53,982 nt of DNA from a virus (IMGVR_UViG_3300044766_000063:1-53982); one strand, 5' to 3'. Positions 3,903 to 52,409 are shown, counted from the first letter of the stretch. Numbers and translations: made by a program. Notes: generated from the sequence alone by a model not told the origin.

Positions 3903-3999
3903 TGTTGCGCTTGTTGCGGCGTTTTTTGTTTTGGCTTTTGTGGGTATTTTGCAAACATCATAAGCAACGTATCCCGATCAGCATGACCGGATATACCGA

Positions 4000-28358: not shown

Positions 28359-29975
28359 TCATTTCAACGCTATATAAAGGCTCTGTGGTTGAAGATAATG
28401 TGCGCATCCTGCCCCCGCAACCAAATTAATCTTCAGGGCAATATGTAGCCCTGAACTCGGGACTTCTGCGGTCAAAAAGCCGTCTGTTGGCCGCAGAACC
28501 ACTTCCCCTACCAGTTGGCGTAGAGCTTCCCTAGCAATCTCAATATGTTCAGTATTCCCTAGTGAAGACACCAAATCTTCATACATTTCACGGGCACGCG
28601 GGATCAATTCGGTTGGCTGGTAACGCTCAAACTCCTTTAGTTCGCCTTGGACATCCTTTAGCTTTTGTTCGCTATCTCGCAATGCAGCTTTTACCGATGG
28701 AGAGTCAATCCCGCCCATGATTGCTTTAATCAGGTTATCTATTTCCTTTTGGGTGTCGGCAATTTTCTTTTTGATAAGCGATGCATCAGGTGCGCCAGAC
28801 TTTAAAGAGGCGCGCACATTCTTTTCAAAATCAAGGTATGCTTCTTCAGATAGAAGTTCTCTTTTAATGCCTGTCAGCAATTCTCCTTCGACTGTTGATC
28901 GTTTGATCTGTAGGTTGTTACTGCAAACACTATTACCGCGATCTTTATGAAACGCGCACCCATATTTTGTCTTGTTTACCATGGTGTAATTTGCGCCACA
29001 TACGCCGCACTTTAAAAGCCCGCTGAATAAGTATTTGGACGGCGCACTACTGCTGCATCCCTTTCCATTTGCAGAGCCTTTACCGTTTTTTCTATTCTCA
29101 TCTGCGATGGCTTTTTTTGCCCGGATACGTTTGTCACATTTAATCCATGTCTCATCGTCAATAATGCGCAGTTCCGGCAAATTAACTGTTTTCCATTCCT
29201 CCTTTGGTCGCATGGTACGTAAACGTTTCCCGGTAGTCGGGTCTTTGACCCACTTTGTTTTATCGAACATCGGACTACCGATATAAGTTGAATTGCACAA
29301 CATGCCAACTTCTTTGGCGCTGGGATGAATTGAAGAGGGAGACCACGTACCGCCTGCTGGGCCTTTTACGCCTTTTTCATTTAATTCGGTAGCGATCTGG
29401 CGTGCTGCCGCGCCTTCTGAATAACGCTTGAAAATATACCGTATCCACTGAGCCTGTTCATTATTGATAGCAAGTTTAGAACCGTTGCCATCAGGAATTA
29501 AGTTATAACCATACGGTTTAGCGCCAGCGGAATATCCTTTTAAAAATTGCCCTTCAAGACCGCGATGTGTTTTTTTGGCGAGGTCATCCAGATATAATTC
29601 ACCCATCAAGCCACGAAGACTTGTTTCGATTTTAGAGTTATCTCTTGCGGTATCAATTCCATCTGAAACACCAATTATTCTGATACCAAGAAACTTAAAT
29701 TGTCGGATGGTAGTTAGGTTTCCTATATTGTCGCGTGACAAACGATCCAAGTCATCTACCAGTAAAATATCAAATGACTTAGCATTGGCGGCAGCTAACA
29801 TTTCCAGATACCCAGGACGATCATTGCGCGATCCGCTGATAGCCTGATCTTTATAAGCGATAGGCATTGGGAGATTATTGCGAGTGCAATAATTTTGAAT
29901 ATTGCGCAACTGGTCTTCAATTGAAGCCTCGCGCTGCATATCAGATGAGTAACGAAGGTAACAAGCGGTTCTCAT
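28359..29975 (-). CDS. Large serine integrase
   Basis: YLRYSS catalytic motif, DDLDRLSRD, recombinase domain, Zn ribbon LLKCGVCG..YGC..C and coiled coil. Confidence 0.95.
   Translation of the reverse strand: MRTACYLRYSSDMQREASIEDQLRNIQNYCTRNNLPMPIAYKDQAISGSRNDRPGYLEMLAAANAKSFDILLVDDLDRLSRDNIGNLTTIRQFKFLGIRIIGVSDGIDTARDNSKIETSLRGLMGELYLDDLAKKTHRGLEGQFLKGYSAGAKPYGYNLIPDGNGSKLAINNEQAQWIRYIFKRYSEGAAARQIATELNEKGVKGPAGGTWSPSSIHPSAKEVGMLCNSTYIGSPMFDKTKWVKDPTTGKRLRTMRPKEEWKTVNLPELRIIDDETWIKCDKRIRAKKAIADENRKNGKGSANGKGCSSSAPSKYLFSGLLKCGVCGANYTMVNKTKYGCAFHKDRGNSVCSNNLQIKRSTVEGELLTGIKRELLSEEAYLDFEKNVRASLKSGAPDASLIKKKIADTQKEIDNLIKAIMGGIDSPSVKAALRDSEQKLKDVQGELKEFERYQPTELIPRAREMYEDLVSSLGNTEHIEIAREALRQLVGEVVLRPTDGFLTAEVPSSGLHIALKINLVAGAGCAHYLQPQSLYIALK
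28406..28423 (+). other. Putative attP core: 3' end of initiator tRNA-Met
   Basis: ATCCTGCCCCCGCAACCA matches the T-arm and acceptor 3' strand with CCA of tRNA-fMet; lies inside the integrase 3' end. Confidence 0.65.
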
Positions 29976-43358: not shown

Positions 43359-43561
43359 TAGTAAACCTCAACCGAAGACGGGCAGTTGCCGACGAATGCG
43401 CGCCAGAATCTGTTGCCCGCATACATGTATTCACAGTTTGCCACGTATTGGCCGGTAACAGATTGACCGTAACGCACCTGTCCTGTCCAGAATGCAGTTG
43501 CAGCAGACGCTGTACCAGAAATAGCCATGCCAACTACCAGTGCCAAGATAAGCTTTTTCAT
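43358..43561 (-). CDS. Small secreted protein
   Basis: Signal peptide MKKLILALVVGMAISGTASA; two Cys in the mature part. Confidence 0.65.
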   Translation of the reverse strand: MKKLILALVVGMAISGTASAATAFWTGQVRYGQSVTGQYVANCEYMYAGNRFWRAFVGNCPSSVEVY

Positions 43562-43809
43562 TTCATTTCTCCTTTCAAAATTTCATTTACTACATCATGA
43601 ATTGCATCCTTTGGATGCTTACCTAACAAAATGCTTGCGCGGATCGCTTCTTTAATTTCTTCATCTGCGACTACTGTTAGACTTAGCTTTCGCGCGACTG
43701 ACCAACTCATTCTTTTCGCGCGATTACGTGCTACAGCGATTCTTCGAGCGGCTATTCCTGCGAATTCTTCTAGGCTGGTATCATCCAGCACACCACTAAA
43801 TTCAATCAT
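43558..43809 (-). CDS. Hypothetical protein
   Basis: AAGGAG RBS preceded by the repeated leader motif. Confidence 0.55.
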   Translation of the reverse strand: MIEFSGVLDDTSLEEFAGIAARRIAVARNRAKRMSWSVARKLSLTVVADEEIKEAIRASILLGKHPKDAIHDVVNEILKGEMK

Positions 43810-43873
43810 TTCTTACTCCTTGTGGCCCACTGAAACCCAGAGGCGCGGTTGCCTGTAAATCAGGCGGAAACTA

Positions 43874-44296
43874 TTAACCTTCTAGTGCATCCGAATAGGC
43901 TCGTGCTACTTCTTCCAGCGCAAACCAGGCGAGAGCGTTTGCAATCTGGCTATCCTCTTTTGATTTGGGGCCGTACAGGGTTTGAGCAACTTCGTCTGTT
44001 GAATAGTTATTATCCAAACAGCGAAATTTTTTGATCATTTCGATGACGCCCATTCCGGCATCTTCTGCCATAGTGGTCGCGTATTGGCGGATCAAGTCGC
44101 GGTGGCTGGTGAAAAACTTCACCGTATCGACGTAATAGATAAAGCCTGAATTACAGCCGGTATCGGCACCATGATTTACAACATCAAGGGCGGATTCTTT
44201 GAATTGCTCCCAGTCGCCCGATTGACGTACTACTGCGCGTATAAGACCTTCTGGGATATTGGACTTGCTGATTAGCTCTTTGATGGTTTTCATCAT
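43874..44296 (-). CDS. Conserved phage protein
   Basis: HG..G..SGFIYY.DT..FF and NALAWFALEEVA. Confidence 0.7.
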   Translation of the reverse strand: MMKTIKELISKSNIPEGLIRAVVRQSGDWEQFKESALDVVNHGADTGCNSGFIYYVDTVKFFTSHRDLIRQYATTMAEDAGMGVIEMIKKFRCLDNNYSTDEVAQTLYGPKSKEDSQIANALAWFALEEVARAYSDALEG

Positions 44297-44352
44297 ATTC
44301 CTTCGGCCCCCAAGACCCGAGGCGTGGTGCCAGCAACATGCCGACAATTGGA

Positions 44353-44430
44353 AGTTTACTACGTTGTTTGTTTATGTCAATACTTTATCTAAAAAATATG
44401 CTTGACGCGATATATTCGTTTTGATATAAA
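44353..44430. promoter_or_regulatory. Divergent sigma70 promoter pair
   Basis: Minus strand TTGACA-16-TAAACT; plus strand TTGACG-17-TATAAA. Confidence 0.6.
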
Positions 44431-44459
44431 GTCGTATCGACCAATTAAAGTCTTACCGC

Positions 44460-44756
44460 ATGGTGAGACGCATAACGATAAGGCCGCCCATGATTGAACG
44501 GGCGGCTTTTTCTTTTTTTCTGGAGAATCCCATGAGATACCCGCGCGGAGTGCCTTCACATGGCAGGCTCGGTTGCTGCCCCGATGACTGGGACAAAATC
44601 CCCGACATTACCGGATCGTATGAGCTTGACGCTGTGATCAAGCAAAGCAAGAACAAAGACGTACCGGCCAGGTTGCAGGTCTATTGCCAGCGGGTGAACT
44701 CTTACGGCCCCTTGACCGCGTATGACGGCTACAACGGCTATTCTGGCGATAATTAG
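44460..44756 (+). CDS. Hypothetical protein
   Basis: Downstream of the rightward promoter; internal GGAG-ATG start near 44532 is likely. Confidence 0.4.
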   Translation: MVRRITIRPPMIERAAFSFFLENPMRYPRGVPSHGRLGCCPDDWDKIPDITGSYELDAVIKQSKNKDVPARLQVYCQRVNSYGPLTAYDGYNGYSGDN

Positions 44757-44950
44757 ACGCCTTCTTTTTGGCGCGCGTGTGCGTCGATACGTTGACGGGC
44801 GCGAAGTCCCGAATTTCAGGAGTGACACCATGGCAAAGCCAAAAGAAAAAGTACCAATGGGCAAAGGTAAGGGCAAGGGCAAAGGGCCGTTTGGCCCGAA
44901 GTGCTGAACACTACGCGCGTATCCAGCATACGCGCGTATAGGAGATAACG

Positions 44951-45145
44951 ATGCCCTGGTCACTTTCAAGCGGGATAAAGCACACGAAGAAGGCCGACAC
45001 TTCGGCCAAAAAGAAACAATGGGCCAGCACGGCCAATGCTGTACTTGAAAAATCCGGCGACGAAGGCAAGGCCGTTCGGGTAGCAAATGCCGCAGTTAAA
45101 AAACATCCCAGCAAAAAGAAAAAATTACCCCAGTCGCGCGTATAG
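44951..45145 (+). CDS. ChaB-like basic protein
   Basis: MPW...QWASTANAVL..GDEGKAVRVANAAV; AGGAG RBS. Confidence 0.6.
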   Translation: MPWSLSSGIKHTKKADTSAKKKQWASTANAVLEKSGDEGKAVRVANAAVKKHPSKKKKLPQSRV

Positions 45146-45372
45146 GCCGTCCTCGCGCGTATAGGGGTAGGGATTGCCATATTTAAATCGGGTAGCACAT
45201 GCCGCTATTAAATGAAAACCGCGCCCCTGATTGAAGGCAAACTCTCCAAGCCTGCCGCGCGCCTGTGCAAGTCCTGTCCGCCAGTTGACTGGATCAAGTG
45301 TTACCAGACTAACGGCAAGTGGAAGCAGTGCGACAAGCAAGCCGCAAAACAGCCTTAGTCGCGCGTATAGGG

Positions 45373-45579
45373 CTATTCAGCCGCTATGCTGGCAACAAAA
45401 AAACAAATACCGGCAAGGATCAAAAAACCCATAGCCCCCAGTATCTGGAAACTGATAATGCTGGCAAGCATGGCAAAGACTGAAGCAATACCCCCAAGCC
45501 ATCCGGCAAGAATCCAGAACCAACGCTGAAAGGCTAGATAAGCGGCAACGATTAAAGTAATTACAATTGTTATTTCCAT
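45373..45579 (-). CDS. Small membrane protein
   Basis: Three hydrophobic segments; AAGGA RBS. Confidence 0.6.
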   Translation of the reverse strand: MEITIVITLIVAAYLAFQRWFWILAGWLGGIASVFAMLASIISFQILGAMGFLILAGICFFVASIAAE

Positions 45580-45670
45580 GATGATCCTTTAGCCCTTCAG
45601 TAACGCCGGGGCGCGCGTATAAACCGGCAAAATTGCCACAATGCGCCCTTAGTATCAAAGGCGCATAATG

Positions 45671-46069
45671 TCAGGCTTGCACGGCCTTGGCGATTGCGGC
45701 GCGGGCAGCTTCAAGCCTTTGCGCTTGCGTCTTCCCGAGTGTGGTTGTATAGCTGAATGCCTCAAGAATGCGAGTTACACCTTGCAAGGCTTCCAGCAAT
45801 TCAGGTGCGGCGGCAATTAAGCGCGCGTTAGCCTCAAGGTTTGAATGGCCTGTTGAATTTATTAGCGCCCCCATATCAAAAATATGGGTTCCGTCAGTTT
45901 CAATAATATTCATAAAGCTGGAATTCTCGCGCGAATAGAGCCACGGTCCAGGCGTATGTTTGGTGTTCACGTTGGTAATTCCGGCAATCGCCACCGCCTC
46001 ACCGCGCACAATTGCGCCGGTTACGTGATGACGTAATGCGTTCAATGGTGCGTTGTTTTTCGTGTTCAT
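45671..46069 (-). CDS. Conserved phage protein
   Basis: HTPGPW...ANARLIAAAPELLEAL. Confidence 0.75.
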   Translation of the reverse strand: MNTKNNAPLNALRHHVTGAIVRGEAVAIAGITNVNTKHTPGPWLYSRENSSFMNIIETDGTHIFDMGALINSTGHSNLEANARLIAAAPELLEALQGVTRILEAFSYTTTLGKTQAQRLEAARAAIAKAVQA

Positions 46070-46102
46070 GGTTTTATCCTTTCGTATGCGCGTATAGGCG
46101 CT

Positions 46103-46384
46103 TTAGTTATTGCGCAAGCGTGCATGAATGGCTAAAGCCTCATCCCCGTATTTGGCGCAGTATTGCGTATAGTGCGCAATCAATGCTTGGCACGCTGTAC
46201 GCTCATCGTCAGACGATGCAGGGCGGGTTTTTTCGCGGTAATAGCTAACGCACCCTTCGGAATGCTGTTCTTCGCGCGTATAGACACTTAGCGCATAGCC
46301 GTTATACTTAACTGGGTTGCGGTAAAATATTGCAGGCTTGCCGGTTAGCTTTTCGATCCTGATAACTGCATGTAAAGTTTTCAT
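46103..46384 (-). CDS. Hypothetical protein
   Basis: ATGA coupling; QHSE...YY..TRPA motif. Confidence 0.6.
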   Translation of the reverse strand: MKTLHAVIRIEKLTGKPAIFYRNPVKYNGYALSVYTREEQHSEGCVSYYREKTRPASSDDERTACQALIAHYTQYCAKYGDEALAIHARLRNN

Positions 46385-46512
46385 GCTTGCGCCCCTTTCA
46401 TTGCATTAAGCCATAACGTAACCTGCGCCGGACTAACCCCGTACTCCTCAGCCTTAGCGACTGCAAAAATAACGGACTCTTTCGCTGTTTCAATAAATTC
46501 CTTTTGAGACAT
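46381..46512 (-). CDS. Small hypothetical protein (43 aa)
   Basis: MSQKEFIETAKE...; preceded by the leader motif and AAGGGG. Confidence 0.5.
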   Translation of the reverse strand: MSQKEFIETAKESVIFAVAKAEEYGVSPAQVTLWLNAMKGAQA

Positions 46513-46602
46513 AGCAACCCCTTAGCCCCTGTTTACCCGAGGCGCGGTTAGAGTGTTTAGCCACTCCCTGCGCCCCCTTATGGGAAGAGGCGCAAGGCGG
46601 GA

Positions 46603-47148
46603 CTAAACGCCGCAAGCCATAGCATCCTGGAAACGATGTTCTACGGCATACGCGCGGTAGGCTTGCTCTGTTAGGTCTTGCGCGGTCTCTTCGATGTAGT
46701 CGTCATCTTCGGAACCGATACCCCAAAGCGCGAAGGTGTAGTCAATAGGCGCGTCTTCGTTGTCGGTTATGTCGGTAACGACTACGCCGCACCAATGCCA
46801 ATTATCATTAGCCCATCCGCTTAAATATTCAAAATCATGGCGGACTGACTCGGCGGTAATTTCACCCTTTGTTGGGGTGCGGCCTAGTTTGGCGGTAAGT
46901 GTGGCGAGACGATCCGCACCTAACCCCCAGCCTTCAGCCTTTGCCTTTTTCATAGTTGCGGCATGATCATAAAAACGTTTGGAATGACGGTCTGAGCTTA
47001 ACAACCATTCTCCCGCGTGTTTGTCGCGTGTAACCCAGTCGCTTACTATGCCGTGTCCGTCATGTTCATTCCATGGTGCGCCCATGTCTTGATCGTCTGA
47101 CGTGTCAATGCGGTAAGTACGGCTATTTAGTTCAATAGTGTTTTGCAT
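46603..47148 (-). CDS. Conserved acidic phage protein
   Basis: PWNEHDGHG.VSDW and W.WCGVVVT...LWGI; AAGGA RBS. Confidence 0.7.
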   Translation of the reverse strand: MQNTIELNSRTYRIDTSDDQDMGAPWNEHDGHGIVSDWVTRDKHAGEWLLSSDRHSKRFYDHAATMKKAKAEGWGLGADRLATLTAKLGRTPTKGEITAESVRHDFEYLSGWANDNWHWCGVVVTDITDNEDAPIDYTFALWGIGSEDDDYIEETAQDLTEQAYRAYAVEHRFQDAMACGV

Positions 47149-47176
47149 GGTAATCCTTTCGTTATTTAACGGTTGT

Positions 47177-47392
47177 TTAACGGTCTTCTAACGTGTATTC
47201 GTCCGGTACAGTCTCGGGGCTTGTGAATGGCTCTAGGCAATCATCCACACAACCTACGCCGCTATCAGTAAAATCATCGGGGGCTTCTGCTGCAAGCTCT
47301 GAAGCCGTCAAACACTCGGGGCAATCGGTAGGCAGTGCGAAGACCTGCAAGGCCAAAACCAGGCACACGGCAAGGGAGAGGGCGCGGATCAT
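47177..47392 (-). CDS. Small secreted acidic protein
   Basis: Signal-like N-terminus; CPEC and CVDDC. Confidence 0.5.
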   Translation of the reverse strand: MIRALSLAVCLVLALQVFALPTDCPECLTASELAAEAPDDFTDSGVGCVDDCLEPFTSPETVPDEYTLEDR

Positions 47393-47739
47393 GACTGCAC
47401 CTTCTCACGCTTCAAAACAAGGCGAAACGGTGCGGACTCATTCGCGCGGTATTCTTTCAGCCGTTCGCGCGCTTCTTTGCGGGTCTCTTCGGCTGTTACA
47501 CATTCCCAGCCGTGCTCATATTGGCCTTGAACCTCCCAACTATCAACAGTGGAGCGGATCAAGGCATACGTGGTGCCCGCTGGCATACGCGATACAGGCG
47601 GCAAACCATCATGGGCGCGGCATGAGTTATAGTCCTGCAAAGCGCAAGCCCTGAAGGTTTGGCCGTATCCATCGGCGGCTATAGTTGAATAGCTCCCCTG
47701 TTCAGCCGTAGGGGGTACGGTTACGTTATAGCGGGCCAT
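47389..47739 (-). CDS. Hypothetical protein
   Basis: VQGQY..GWE..T.EET..EA..LKEYR.NE; GGAG RBS. Confidence 0.6.
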   Translation of the reverse strand: MARYNVTVPPTAEQGSYSTIAADGYGQTFRACALQDYNSCRAHDGLPPVSRMPAGTTYALIRSTVDSWEVQGQYEHGWECVTAEETRKEARERLKEYRANESAPFRLVLKREKVQS

Positions 47740-47740
47740 T

Positions 47741-48142
47741 TTAGTTAATCTCCGCAAGTTGGTTAAGTTCATCCACATTGAACAGACGCGCAAGCCCTGC
47801 ATTCTGGCGCTTTAATTCGCGGGCTATCTTTTCCAGCTTGCGCACGTCTTCCATGCTGTGGACTTCGTAGCCGTAAGAGTTGATTAAATCGTCTACGGTC
47901 TCGGGTTCGTTAGAATCAAGACAAGCCAAAATATCATAGGCGGAAGGCTCCACCCCAGCGTTAGCGATTGACTGCCCAAACTTGGCAGTATAGGACTTGC
48001 CATTGCGCGACAAGGTAAAGCGGTAAATATCGCGGCAATCCTTGTCATCGGCAAAATAGAAGTCATGCTCTACAAAGACAATGGTTAATTTTGTGCCTGT
48101 TGACTTCAGGAAGTCTTGAGCCTGTTTAATATATTCGTTCAT
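47741..48142 (-). CDS. Conserved phage protein
   Basis: EYIKQAQDFL...FGQSI...PSAYDILACL; AAGGAG RBS. Confidence 0.7.
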   Translation of the reverse strand: MNEYIKQAQDFLKSTGTKLTIVFVEHDFYFADDKDCRDIYRFTLSRNGKSYTAKFGQSIANAGVEPSAYDILACLDSNEPETVDDLINSYGYEVHSMEDVRKLEKIARELKRQNAGLARLFNVDELNQLAEIN

Positions 48143-48186
48143 GTTTCTATACTCCTTTGGTAGTAGCCCTTATCCGAAAGGCGCGG

Positions 48187-48369
48187 TTATTCTATTTCGA
48201 TCAAGTCCGATGCCAGGTAAACGGCAGTCGGGACAAACCCAGCACTAAAGCCTGAGTTTTGAGCCTGAACCAATACGCGAGGCCCGCGCAATTCCATCAC
48301 GGTGAAACATTCCCCTGCTTCGTTCTCTGTTAGCGGGTGCTTAAACTTCACTGTTTGGCCTTGTTTCAT
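48187..48369 (-). CDS. Small SH3-like protein
   Basis: MKQGQTVKF...; AAGGGG RBS. Confidence 0.5.
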   Translation of the reverse strand: MKQGQTVKFKHPLTENEAGECFTVMELRGPRVLVQAQNSGFSAGFVPTAVYLASDLIEIE

Positions 48370-48379
48370 GGTTGCCCCC

Positions 48380-48499
48380 TTATACCGGATCATGCGAAGC
48401 CATTTCAACCAATGCCGCAAGCTCTGCCGCTTCAATGGTCAGGAATTGCTCAATAGTGACTTCTTGCTTGTTGCCGTTGTTGTCATAGATAGTGATCAT
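48380..48499 (-). CDS. Small hypothetical protein (39 aa)
   Basis: MITIYDNNGNKQEV...; preceded by the leader motif and AAGGA. Confidence 0.45.
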   Translation of the reverse strand: MITIYDNNGNKQEVTIEQFLTIEAAELAALVEMASHDPV

Positions 48500-48635
48500 G
48501 ATATTTTCCTTTAGCCCGAAAGTATCGCCTAGGCGCGCGGTTAACGATTGTTAACGGGTAGAACGTAAAGAAGCGATTGCATGAGCCAATAGGCTAGGCT
48601 CTTTTGTTTGTTTGGTCTTATCAAACCCACAGCGG

Positions 48636-48827
48636 CTATTTGCGGCTTAAGTTATGGATTGCTTCTGTTAAGTCTTCAAGTGCCAGCATGTAACCCTGAT
48701 TCTTTACAATCATTCCCGCAACTTGAGGATTGAGCTTTAATGGCATTAATTCATTAATCCGTTTTTCTGCCTCATGCCATAGTTTATCGGCTTGGGTAAG
48801 TACTGCTTTATGAGTCTTATTTAACAT
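48636..48827 (-). CDS. Hypothetical protein
   Basis: GGAG RBS. Confidence 0.55.
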   Translation of the reverse strand: MLNKTHKAVLTQADKLWHEAEKRINELMPLKLNPQVAGMIVKNQGYMLALEDLTEAIHNLSRK

Positions 48828-49004
48828 GGCTTGCTTCTCCCTGGTAATGATTAAGTAACAACCTACAACCCAAACTCTACAGAACTCATTGGTAAATGTC
48901 TATACATTTATGCAAATAAACGTTAGTACCCGATTCGGATAAAGTGGGAATATTATGTCAAATGCCAAGCGCCAATGAATACAAACACTTGATAATTTTT
49001 GATT

Positions 49005-49502: not shown

Positions 49503-52409
49503 ATGAGACCTGAAGACATAGCGCGACTGATTAGAGAGGAGGCGAGGCGAGGCGCACAGCCTAAAGACCTGGGCATTGAAGGCGAAAAAGGGCAGCTACA
49601 ATCCAGCCCTTCAAAACCGGAAAAGCAAAATGAAATTGCTGATGCTGAGATTCCCCCCCCCTCAGCATCTCCCCATCCGCAACCTGAAATTTTTTCCGCC
49701 CAAAATTTTTCAGATCGTAAAGATTCGTCTCCTTACGCTGACACTCCAAAATTTTTCCGCCAATTTTTGGAGCCAGATAACGGTAGTCTAACCAAAGCCG
49801 TACCGTTACTTAACGCAACTCTGTGCCAGCAGTACGACTCATGCCTTGATGTGCCTTTCCTGGACATCTTCAAGTGGTGGGAAGAGAAGACCGACCGGTA
49901 CAAGAACCTGCCTCTCGTCAGAGCGTTGTGCATGTACGACAGGTTCTTCTTGCTCGTTCAGATGTTCGGTCGTCAGGACATGCTTCATGAATGGCTTTAT
50001 GAGCGTTGTAGGGAAGTGGAGAGAGAGCCGGATAACTGTCTCGATCTGTGGAGTCGATTTCACTATAAAGCGGTGGACTTGCGTGAAGTTGTTCCGACTC
50101 CTTCTGGATGGAAGCGTCATGGAGATTTAGAGCCGGAAGATTATGTTTTTGGCCCGGACGGAAAACCGAAGAAAGTTCTTGCTCGGACAGAAGTGTTTAC
50201 GGATGCTGATTGTTGGGTTGTGAAGTTTGATAAAGGGTATGAAGTTGTCGTTTCAGCCGAACATCTTTGGACGGTGGACATCGCTTCAAAGGTAAGAGTT
50301 GGTGATGGTCGTGAAGGCAGGAAGACTGTAACGATCAACACCAGAGAACTTGCTGCTGAAGTCGCTCATTCCAAAGCAGTTGAGAGCAGAGTCTTACCTT
50401 CCGTTCCGGTAGCGAAAGCACTTGAGTATTCCGCATCAAGTCTTCCTGTCCCTCCCTATGTGTTGGGTGTGTGGTTGGGGGATGGAAATAAGGCTGACGG
50501 ACGTATCTCGAAAGATTTTCAGGATGAAATCATCTTGGAGAAAATCCGCGCCTGTGGTTTTGCAGTTGAACGTAAAGCTGGATTGAGCGTACAAATCTTC
50601 GGCCTTCTGCCGAAGTTGAAGACGTTGGGAGTCTGGAATGATAAGCACGTTCCAGTGAGTTATCTCACTGCCTCAATTGCGGATCGCTGGGAGCTTTTGA
50701 GTGGTTTGATGGATACAGATGGTCACTGTGATATTCGCGGTACAGCGACTTTCGTAAACAAGAGCGCAGCTCTCGCTGGGAATGTTTTTGAACTGGCCGT
50801 ATCGTTAGGTTTAAAACCTTCGCTACGGCATGTGGATGGAACTTACAACGACCAACCTTATCCGTATTATCAGGTCTCTCTTCAGTCCAGACATGATAAG
50901 CAAGTCTTCAGTCTTCCCAGAAAACAGGAACGCTCTACCGATGGGAAGGTGACTCGCTCTGGTCGTCATGCAATAGTCTCTGTAGAACCGGCTGATACGA
51001 TTCCTGTGTCTTGTATTCAAGTGGAAGGTGGAGAGTACCTGATCGGGGAACACTGCATCCCGACTCACAACTCCACCATCATTACTTACGCTGGGGTAAT
51101 TCAGGAGATTTTGAAAGACCCGGAGCTGACGGTTGGAATCTTTAGCCATGTGAAACCCATCGCTAAAGGTTTCTTGAGCCAGATCAAGCGGGAGCTTGAG
51201 TCTAATGAGCAGTTGAAGAAGCTGTTCCCTGATGTTCTATACGACAATCCTGAACGTCAGAGTCCGTCATGGTCGGTGGATAACGGGCTGATCGTGAAGA
51301 GACGGGGTAACCCGAAAGAACCTACGATTTCGGCCTGGGGTCTTGTTGACGGTCAACCTGTCTCAGCTCACTACAGACTGAGAGTCTATGATGACGTGGT
51401 GACTCAGGCATCTGTCTCGACTCCCGAGCAGGTCTCGAAAACGACTGAGGCGTTTGAACAATCCGCGAACTTGGGAACTGAGGACGGTCGGCGTTGGATG
51501 GTGGGTACGCGGTGGTCTTATGCGGATACTTACGCCGAGATCATGAAGAAGAAGATGGTGAAAGTCCGTCTTTATCCTGCCACGGACGATGGGACGTTTA
51601 CCGGGAACCCGGTATTGTGGTCGCCCGAGTTTAACGAGCAGATGAAACTTGAACAGGGAGAGGCGACTTATGCAACGCAATGTCTTCAGAACCCACTTGC
51701 AGGCAACCAGAAGATGTTCGATGTGGCCGATCTTCAGACTTACGAAGTCAGACCTGAAACGCTTGCAGTTTACATCCTCATTGACCCGGCGAGATCGAAA
51801 AAGACGGATTCTGACAACACGGCTATGGTTGTTGTGGGTCTGGACTACGCAGCGAACAAATACATCCTTGATGGGTTTAACCACAAGATGGACTTGCAAG
51901 AACGCTGGCAAAATACAGCCCGTCTCTATGAACGATGGAAACGAGCTACAGGGGTACAAGCTTTATATGTCGGATACGAAAGTTTCGCTGCGCAAGCCGA
52001 CTTGGACTATTTCCACGAACAGCAGAACCTGACGAAGATTCACTTCAACATAGTTGAGTTGGCTTGGCCCCGAGAAGGAGGTGGTTCAAAGATGGATCGT
52101 GTACAAAGACTTGGCCCGGATATGCGAAGTCACAAAATCTTCCTGCCTTATCCAACCGACGAAAAAAACCTGACTGCGGGTCAGAGAAAAATGACCCAGG
52201 GTTATGACTACCGTATTGCTCACAAGATCAAACGGAAAGATGAGAACAATGAGGCTTACGATTTGGCAGAACAACTCAAAGAACAGATATTTTATTTTCC
52301 ATTTGGAGGGAAGAAGGATTTGGTGGATGCGCTCTCCCGGATTTATGACATGGAACCCAGGGCACCAAGTTATCGTGAGCAGCGTTATTCAGAACCGGAG
52401 TTTGTATGA
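49503..52409 (+). CDS. Terminase large subunit (intein-containing)
   Basis: Walker A SRFHYK|ST, Walker B VYDDVV, VGTRW, nuclease ILIDPA and KDLVDALS; true start uncertain. Confidence 0.9.
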   Translation: MRPEDIARLIREEARRGAQPKDLGIEGEKGQLQSSPSKPEKQNEIADAEIPPPSASPHPQPEIFSAQNFSDRKDSSPYADTPKFFRQFLEPDNGSLTKAVPLLNATLCQQYDSCLDVPFLDIFKWWEEKTDRYKNLPLVRALCMYDRFFLLVQMFGRQDMLHEWLYERCREVEREPDNCLDLWSRFHYKAVDLREVVPTPSGWKRHGDLEPEDYVFGPDGKPKKVLARTEVFTDADCWVVKFDKGYEVVVSAEHLWTVDIASKVRVGDGREGRKTVTINTRELAAEVAHSKAVESRVLPSVPVAKALEYSASSLPVPPYVLGVWLGDGNKADGRISKDFQDEIILEKIRACGFAVERKAGLSVQIFGLLPKLKTLGVWNDKHVPVSYLTASIADRWELLSGLMDTDGHCDIRGTATFVNKSAALAGNVFELAVSLGLKPSLRHVDGTYNDQPYPYYQVSLQSRHDKQVFSLPRKQERSTDGKVTRSGRHAIVSVEPADTIPVSCIQVEGGEYLIGEHCIPTHNSTIITYAGVIQEILKDPELTVGIFSHVKPIAKGFLSQIKRELESNEQLKKLFPDVLYDNPERQSPSWSVDNGLIVKRRGNPKEPTISAWGLVDGQPVSAHYRLRVYDDVVTQASVSTPEQVSKTTEAFEQSANLGTEDGRRWMVGTRWSYADTYAEIMKKKMVKVRLYPATDDGTFTGNPVLWSPEFNEQMKLEQGEATYATQCLQNPLAGNQKMFDVADLQTYEVRPETLAVYILIDPARSKKTDSDNTAMVVVGLDYAANKYILDGFNHKMDLQERWQNTARLYERWKRATGVQALYVGYESFAAQADLDYFHEQQNLTKIHFNIVELAWPREGGGSKMDRVQRLGPDMRSHKIFLPYPTDEKNLTAGQRKMTQGYDYRIAHKIKRKDENNEAYDLAEQLKEQIFYFPFGGKKDLVDALSRIYDMEPRAPSYREQRYSEPEFV
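50070..51071 (+). mobile_element. Class 3 intein with LAGLIDADG endonuclease (334 aa)
   Basis: Ala1 start, EHLW, VSCIQV, PTHN|S; LGVWLGDG and LSGLMDTDG. Confidence 0.9.

Follow-up and report, generated by a model that had tools for sequence, protein, structure and literature searches.

Pseudoknots with an effect on translation have been described in individual mRNA leaders (tisB, rpsO and T4 gene 32), and start-associated motifs repeated along phage genomes (SAS and ESAS) are known without evidence of RNA pairing. The element described here combines both kinds. It occurs six times within a cluster of small genes in the complete virus record of a soil phage, IMGVR_UViG_3300044766_000063:1-53982 (53,982 bp, 47% G+C; the whole of this stretch was analysed and is called the window below), as a predicted H-type pseudoknot of about 25 nt in the mRNA leader, in front of a Shine-Dalgarno (SD) sequence. 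Its novelty lies in being a dispersed, multi-copy leader with real compensatory changes that is tied both to ribosome sites and to mosaic breakpoints. The reading preferred for it, tentatively and with somewhat less than an even chance of being right, is that of a portable self-folding translation-initiation leader that doubles as an exchange point for gene cassettes.

Protein S1 is reported to bind H-type pseudoknots and, in the tisB +42 mRNA, the 5' pseudoknot of the standby site is said to aid the 30S subunit via S1 (PMC7708055). The phage element is like it in being a small H-type pseudoknot in an mRNA leader; however, the tisB pseudoknot is a 5'-terminal, single-copy element that lies some 100 nt away from a sequestered ribosome site, whereas the phage copies are many, dispersed and abut an apparently open SD. 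The rpsO (S15) operator of E. coli also has a leader pseudoknot at the ribosome-binding site, balanced with hairpin forms, and serves as an operator for a protein (PMC3985624); unlike the phage element, it is autoregulatory, is present in a single copy and has the ribosome site included in the pseudoknot. The SAS and ESAS of Cluster K mycobacteriophages share with the element that they are multi-copy, keep one orientation and stand a few bases before the starts of varied non-structural genes within one phage cluster. The 13-bp SAS contains the SD and is suspected of a role in translation, and the inverted repeats of ESAS are reported to come without support for RNA pairing (PMC3203893), whereas in the phage element the pairing covaries and the SD lies outside; the 13-bp SAS consensus has no match in the window with up to 2 mismatches. 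Finally, the PeSL cassettes of T4-type phages, which consist of an early promoter and a terminator-like stem-loop, are likewise short conserved regulatory motifs at the borders of small-gene modules, whose shuffling they mediate (PMC2839356, PMC4122927). Unlike them, the conserved part is here a pseudoknot beside an SD, and it does not amount to an early promoter-stem-loop unit.

An earlier, sequence-only reading of this DNA had not recognised the motif as a described family, and this held. There is no match in the whole window at the gathering thresholds of Rfam 15, whose families include preQ1, SAM-II/V, fluoride and phage-associated motifs, and lowering the demand to E <= 10 over 43500-48900 gives 6 weak matches, none at gathering and none touching the copies w2 to w6 (numbered as in Table 1); one of them, to snoU36a, spans w1 below threshold (43784-43868, E 0.76, with 21.8 bits where gathering demands 45). 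A full-text literature search, with supplements outside it, found no description of the motif, and the motif is new. The preQ1-I riboswitch is of similar size, has the H-type topology and is also located next to the SD. A small-molecule riboswitch of that size class would agree with a small, marginally stable H-type pseudoknot beside an SD; nonetheless, even at E <= 10 the Rfam riboswitch models give no match, the loops are constant neither in length nor in sequence and have no conserved unpaired pocket, the SD lies outside the stems, and the downstream genes are mutually unrelated and have no common pathway, and this explanation is considered extremely improbable. Antitermination sites of the nut/boxB type were dropped, since the copies per operon are too many and their loops have 8-13 nt, not the pentaloop of boxB.

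Matched changes in stem 1 and conservation of stem 2

In the proposed fold, a G+C-rich hairpin (stem 2, GCCY(C)/(G)GGGC) would offer three or four loop bases for pairing with the bases two positions 5' of the hairpin (stem 1). The six strings from which the motif had originally been put together are all present on the minus strand of the window, letter for letter. A loose pattern that comprises stem 2 plus the SD (CGCCY-N4-19-GGGC-N0-10-ARGGR) has 8 matches against 0.36 expected, a number reached in 0/100 shuffles; all 8 are on the minus strand at 43.8-48.5 kb and correspond to the six copies, an overlapping duplicate and a related plain hairpin (46565-46599). The covariance model R1, in turn, finds exactly the six copies in the window at E <= 0.013, the next match having E = 6.4.

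Relatives of the phage were reached via its 968-aa protein, which led to three close contigs in IMG/VR and to more in metagenomes (L119 = L142-145 = L173 and L146 = L175 being duplicate fetches of one contig each). Two covariance models were built on 22 seed copies, the seed pattern demanding only stem 2, the SD and the start codon, and both recover the same 24 copies, two of which are absent from the seed set. The window accounts for six of these, and eight related contigs from metagenomes for the other 18 (L145, 2; L146, 1; L169, 1; L170, 4; L171, 6; L172, 1; L182, 2; L184, 1). All 24 lie on the gene-sense strand, i.e., the strand opposite the gene of the 968-aa protein, and all 24 have the H-type arrangement, with the 3' arm of stem 1 within the loop of stem 2 and with non-overlapping arms. 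Two further copies at the w4 site, read by eye in contigs from sediment metagenomes, are counted outside the 24.

The covariation claimed for stem 1 from the six window copies holds, and it is much stronger once the relatives are added. With the 5' arm fixed as the three bases two positions before stem 2, the copy's own loop carries the Watson-Crick partner in 22/24 copies (20/22 unique), and with G·U allowed 23/24 copies pair (21/22 unique). The exception is w5, which the sequence-only reading had left ambiguous: its stem 1 does form, but only when the register is moved by one base. At offsets of the 5' arm from -3 to +2, only 2-10 of the 24 copies are paired, combining an arm with loops from copies with another arm (non-cognate combinations) gives a match in 87/320 cases (27%), and 0/20,000 permutations reach the observed 20/22 unique copies. 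Counted in register over the 23 distinct sequences, stem 1 is ACC/GGU in 10, CCC/GGG in 5, GCC/GGC in 3, CGC/GCG in 3, GCC/GGU in 1 and CCG/CGG in 1, with no mismatched or mixed type; since this in-register table was picked to pair, the fixed-register test is the unbiased figure. The alignment of the model points in the same direction: 85.7% of its cells are paired (79.5% after shuffling), the covariation score is 0.187 (0.091 after shuffling), and 0/500 shuffles reach either value. It is partly mis-registered (about one third of the copies at stem 1 and six at the 3' arm of stem 2), and the in-register counts come from a separate script because the model structured on stem 1 left the copies with longer junctions out of register. 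As a control, 13 of 118 random database matches to ACC, GC and the stem 2 pattern have GGT in the loop. The loose-pattern matches in the collection, at least 118, were accordingly rejected as real copies, being chance-like in this respect (13/118) and none of them lying in a relative.

The copies are kin, and independent events therefore weigh more than cell counts. Within the family of 39-43-aa genes, the leader has CGC/GCG in the window, CCC/GGG in L184, L182 and L171 and GCC/GGC in L169; a copy at the end of contig L172 has GCC/GGU, its gene being cut by the contig end. The leaders of DUF7222 genes have ACC/GGU in the window and L171 and CCC/GGG in L170, those of the w4 gene family have ACC/GGU, CGC/GCG or CCC/GGG, and one of the sediment copies at the w4 site has, by eye, a wholly different matched stem 1, AAGCU/AGCUU. 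In the orthologous pairs w1/L171e and w2/L171d, the stems are kept and the loops differ. Given that stem 1 covaries, its pairing in a single strand, i.e., in RNA, is under selection.

In stem 2, pairs 1-3 (G-C, C-G, C-G) are invariant in 23/23 distinct sequences, pair 4 is U·G in 19 and C-G in 4, and pair 5 is C-G in 13, U-A in 2, U·G in 1 and unpaired in 7. The linker is GC in 16/23, and in the copies with a two-base junction stem 2 is extended by the pairs AU/AU, UA/UA or AA/UU, which covary in this subset. Transferred to the opposite strand, the U·G would turn into a C·A mismatch; this, together with the single orientation of the copies, indicates the mRNA strand.

Due to this conservation of stem 2 and linker in sequence, beyond pairing, a trans-acting binder is the main rival: the element would be a translational operator whose stem 2, U·G and GC linker are read by a phage or host protein or by an RNase, switching the gene set together. 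Stem 1 varies freely while stem 2 and the linker are conserved far beyond the need of pairing, marginal stability would suit a fold stabilised by a ligand or protein, and there are precedents in the action of S15 on the rpsO pseudoknot, of gp32 on the pseudoknot in its own leader and of Com of phage Mu on the mom leader. Nevertheless, common descent and recombination through stem 2 would conserve its sequence equally well, and with 1 to 23 nt between fold and SD the spacing is loose for the occlusion of a ribosome site. Moreover, no RNA-binding domain or candidate was found among the cluster proteins, nor among the 28 different proteins scanned with Pfam and PHROG, so that the regulon under one trans-acting factor that had been proposed for these genes has no candidate protein in that set. 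An operator is regarded as rather unlikely.

Placement beside ribosome-binding sites

Each core of the window, taken from the 5' arm of stem 1 through the 3' arm of stem 2, ends 1-7 nt 5' of an SD-like purine run that is followed by ATG, exactly as had been proposed (Table 1). When extended to the 24 copies, a position directly upstream of the ribosome-binding site is kept in 22, with a gap of 1-11 nt between fold and SD and with the start codon 9-26 nt past the fold, the SD in between (for w4 and L171a the starts were corrected by eye, since the script gave TTG and an ATG 12 nt past the fold is the likely start). It is lost in 2/24 copies (L170 and L171) and in the two metagenome copies, where an element of about 20 nt, CTATACGCGCG, intervenes. 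The presence of the fold also follows the spacing of the genes: between 43.5 and 48.9 kb, 8 minus-strand genes have a gap of more than 20 nt before them and 6 of these have the fold, and none of the genes whose start overlaps the previous stop has it. The selected pairing, the sense strand and the adjacency to the SD argue together for an RNA element acting on the downstream cistron.

Table 1. Pseudoknot copies of the window, their downstream sites and the promoter-like site, with minus-strand features in window coordinates
Feature	Position	Strand	Details
w1 pseudoknot	43850-43825	minus	stem 1 AACC/GGUU, linker GC, stem 2 GCCU/GGGC; R1 25.1 bits
w1 downstream	43807..43821	minus	SD AAGGAG (43821-43816), ATG 43809, 83-aa gene
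w2 pseudoknot	44328-44306	minus	stem 1 ACC/GGU, linker AC, stem 2 GCCUC/GGGGC; R1 25.6 bits
w2 downstream	44291..44303	minus	SD AAGGAA, ATGATG start (44296/44293), DUF7222 gene
sigma-70-like promoter upstream of w2	44353..44380	minus	TTGACA-16-TAAACT, 10/12 positions
w3 pseudoknot	45618-45592	minus	stem 1 ACGC/GCGU, linker GC, stem 2 GCCC/GGGC; R1 24.2 bits
w3 downstream	45577..45590	minus	SD AAAGGA, ATG 45579, 68-aa hydrophobic protein
w4 pseudoknot	46548-46525	minus	stem 1 ACC/GGU, linker GC, stem 2 GCCUC/GGGGC; R1 32.3 bits
w4 downstream	46510..46523	minus	SD AAGGGG, ATG 46512, 43-aa gene
w5 pseudoknot	48186-48166	minus	stem 1 CCG/CGG shifted, one-base linker, stem 2 GCCUU(U)/(A)AGGGC; R1 25.5 bits
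w5 downstream	48140..48158	minus	SD AAAGGAG, ATG 48142, 133-aa gene
w6 pseudoknot	48539-48514	minus	stem 1 CGC/GCG, linker GC, stem 2 GCCU/GGGC; R1 25.3 bits
w6 downstream	48497..48512	minus	SD AAAGGAA, ATG 48499, 39-aa gene

A different role in the mRNA would be that of a processing or stability element, which would mark or block RNase cleavage between cassettes, or shield a 5' end, resulting in cassette-specific mRNA half-lives. It is in accordance with copies that lie in untranslated gaps between modules, three of them (w1, w3 and w4) behind further hairpins, and with the promoter-like site upstream of w2, from which the transcript start may be placed so that w2 would sit about 17 nt from the 5' end; in L145a, a pair of promoter-like hexamers seen by eye would place the fold similarly near. 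That site upstream of w2 is the only sigma-70-like one among the six window copies (1/6), in a region with 9 promoter-like sites against 8.6 expected. However, a protective 5' structure is normally located within a few bases of the RNA end, and the position of the copies is tied to the SD (1-11 nt in 22/24) and not to the upstream stop (0-95 nt), which makes this possibility distinctly unlikely.

Some details of individual sites can be added. The stop codon of the upstream gene (48189-48187) abuts w5, the 5' part of w3 overlaps a TTATACGCGCG site, and the relative L145 has a core identical to that of w6. Two plain hairpins on the minus strand, at 46594-46569 and 45666-45641, have the arms of stem 2 extended by the linker bases (GCGCCUY...RGGGCGC); they are located just past stop codons and 20-45 nt before w4 and w3, neither has a U-tract, and the one at 46594-46569 is kept in L170 and L171. 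Furthermore, a UAACUAGAUA(A)GGGG leader, which provides stops in all three frames and then an SD, recurs before unrelated genes (L170 at ~3927-3950, L182 at ~658-682 on the minus strand, and L197 and L201 just before DUF7222 homologues) and stands directly behind the fold in two loci. A switch in which the 5' arm of stem 1 or of stem 2 would pair with the SD was considered and dropped, given that generally only 3 bp are possible and that SD-region bases take part in the nested optimum of w2 and w4 only.

Mosaic junctions in the small-gene cluster

The cluster that holds the pseudoknots occupies the minus strand from about 48.9 to 42.6 kb and is transcribed away from the gene of the 968-aa protein (49503-52409, plus strand), which has matches to PHROGs of the terminase large subunit. 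Relatives share patches of the cluster in differing order, and the similarity to them stops at 46522, 46527, 46547, 48507 and 48517, positions that touch or fall within the 3' parts of w4 and w6. A w6-type leader precedes a homologue of the w4 gene in L145, and in L184 the w6 gene, with identical SD and spacer, stands behind a CCC/GGG copy. In four sediment metagenomes, the border of the fold is found at 7/24 loose ends and 4/12 joints among those listed, an enrichment that is descriptive only because intergenic DNA is generally a likely site for junctions. With these mosaic junctions at element borders, the earlier remark that the copies might serve as recombination points is borne out. Since the stem 2 and linker sequence is common to all copies, the element would be a crossover point for accessory-gene cassettes between related phages.

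Would an element that acts on DNA only, either as a recombination junction repeat or as a protein-binding site, with an incidental hairpin, be sufficient? The concentration of mosaic junctions at the borders of the element is what it would lead to, and the neighbouring CTATACGCGCG, partly palindromic and in either orientation, is clearly a site of the DNA type. Matched changes in the arms of stem 1, however, are not expected of a duplex DNA site. Besides, the orientation relative to the genes is the same in 24/24 copies, the conserved U·G amounts to a C·A mismatch on the other strand, and the orthologous pairs keep their stems while varying their loops, all of which renders a DNA-only element improbable.

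The CTATACGCGCG repeat has 9 matches with at most one mismatch in the window (44922-46283, minus strand) against 0.40 expected, with sites ending at 44941, 45145, 45164, 45370, 45622, 45938, 46097 and 46283. It is partly palindromic at 44922-44941, occurs in either orientation relative to the neighbouring genes, lies in relatives between fold and SD, and falls on contig breakpoints at 45622/45623. It has the appearance of a DNA operator or a junction site. Another shared stretch, AGGTTGTTAC (window 48860-48827, L170 ~3977, L172 ~50), is followed in L170 and L172 by a fold before the first cluster gene, and in the window by none, which makes the fold's 5' border the site of a presence/absence polymorphism.

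As for the phage itself, the virion genes, including those of a head-closure-like protein and a virion structural protein (Pfam/PHROG scans), are on the plus strand, and a serine integrase is encoded on the minus strand at 28359-29975. All the genes of the cluster are small genes of unassigned function in the same scans, and with such genes and an integrase-bearing phage the proposal that they are host-takeover genes found no support. The cluster is split by a plus-strand insert of four open reading frames (ORFs) at 44.5-45.4 kb. One plus-strand ORF of 48 aa (45212-45358) has four cysteines with CxxC...C...C spacing and no Pfam match; that it could be a small zinc-ribbon-like nucleic-acid binder is pure speculation. 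The 968-aa protein gives composite PHROG matches, with terminase-large-subunit families over residues 178-564 and 524-961 and a weak DNA-primase match, and the annotation of its homologues from Vibrio phages varies between terminase, Hint-domain protein and DarB-like antirestriction protein. Short CGTTAA / AACCGTTAA repeats are found on the minus strand at 47171-47182, before the gene of a 181-aa protein, and at 48546-48556, before w6. At 44483-44506, between the promoter-like site of w2 and the plus-strand ORFs, a 9-bp G+C-rich hairpin stands between an A-run and a T-run and is terminator-like on the plus strand, though upstream of plus-strand genes.

A blastn of the region against 50,697 deposited phage records gave no match; the 181-aa cluster protein has no relative among the viral contigs, and distant homologues of it occur in Pseudomonas, Achromobacter and Xylella phages. 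A search of genome contigs with the 968-aa protein returned a single distant match only, and a second pattern scan of the collection gave 23 matches, among which only L119 is a true relative. According to the covariance models, there is no copy of the fold in the close-relative fragments L147, L183 and L185-187.

A proposed portable leader for shuffled genes

In the preferred reading, the fold, located directly 5' of an unpaired SD and start codon, would be a constitutive, self-contained module for genes that are not translationally coupled to the preceding gene. The upstream RNA would be tied up by the fold, the ribosome site staying free in any context, and the fold might in addition give the 30S subunit or protein S1 a docking surface. 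Recombination through the shared sequence would then be a by-product that the phage exploits. In this reading, both stems would form simultaneously and translation would be affected. A more daring version, in which the element is a minimal ribosome-entry module whose pseudoknot would dock the 30S (through S1 or the platform) beside the SD, allow context-independent translation and double as a gene-trading recombination joint, is doubtful.

Several observations weigh against a translation-initiation leader. Stem 1 is short (3-4 bp), and the copies are kin that were detected by models derived from this very motif. The support for stem 2 consists mostly of conservation and of one-sided changes from U·G to C-G, three pairs being invariant, and in one contig of run X3 the 3' arm of w3's stem 2 carries G>A at 45593, for which the rows listed show no compensation (232 more rows are unlisted). 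The nested folds of the six leaders have z-scores from -1.43 to +1.38, none of them significant, and a crude pseudoknot energy, in which 9 kcal/mol and a further 0.3 kcal/mol for each loop base are added to the stacking energies, averages -5.7 kcal/mol, where the best nested fold of that stretch has -7.2; on this estimate, the fold alone would be at best marginally stable. The SD regions already look unpaired in the nested folds, so the need for an insulator is not demonstrable, and the 2/24 copies and two metagenome copies with an intervening repeat stand at least 23 nt from the SD. Lastly, there is no copy in relatives whose 968-aa protein is 37-62% identical, their loci and five whole records giving weak model matches only (<= 17.4 bits); as eight loci with DUF7222 homologues at 44-49% identity have no copy of the fold either, the family belongs to a narrow clade.

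The energies also bear on the possibility that only the hairpin of stem 2 forms, stem 1 being a mutually exclusive alternative pairing or a coincidence. Nested folds do equal or beat the crude pseudoknot estimate, and the nested optimum of w2 and w4 turns to other partners, among them SD-region bases, which it engages in no other leader of the six. On the other hand, the arms of stem 1 do not overlap stem 2, stem 1 covaries, and the loop lengths (a linker of 2 nt, a junction of 0-3 nt and a third loop of 2-9 nt) are within the usual range of H-type pseudoknots; a hairpin without a knot is held to be quite improbable. After the operator, the rivals rank in the order of processing or stability, DNA only, hairpin without knot and riboswitch. 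As regards the sequence-only reading as a whole, a strand-specific, SD-adjacent and covarying RNA element, as well as its role at recombination points, is retained, whereas the regulon under a single factor and host takeover are not.

Should the portable leader set or insulate translation, the continued expression of phage genes after shuffling into new contexts would have an explanation, and the leader would represent a natural compact part for context-independent expression. It would, moreover, provide a testable case of a regulatory RNA structure that co-evolves with modular recombination.

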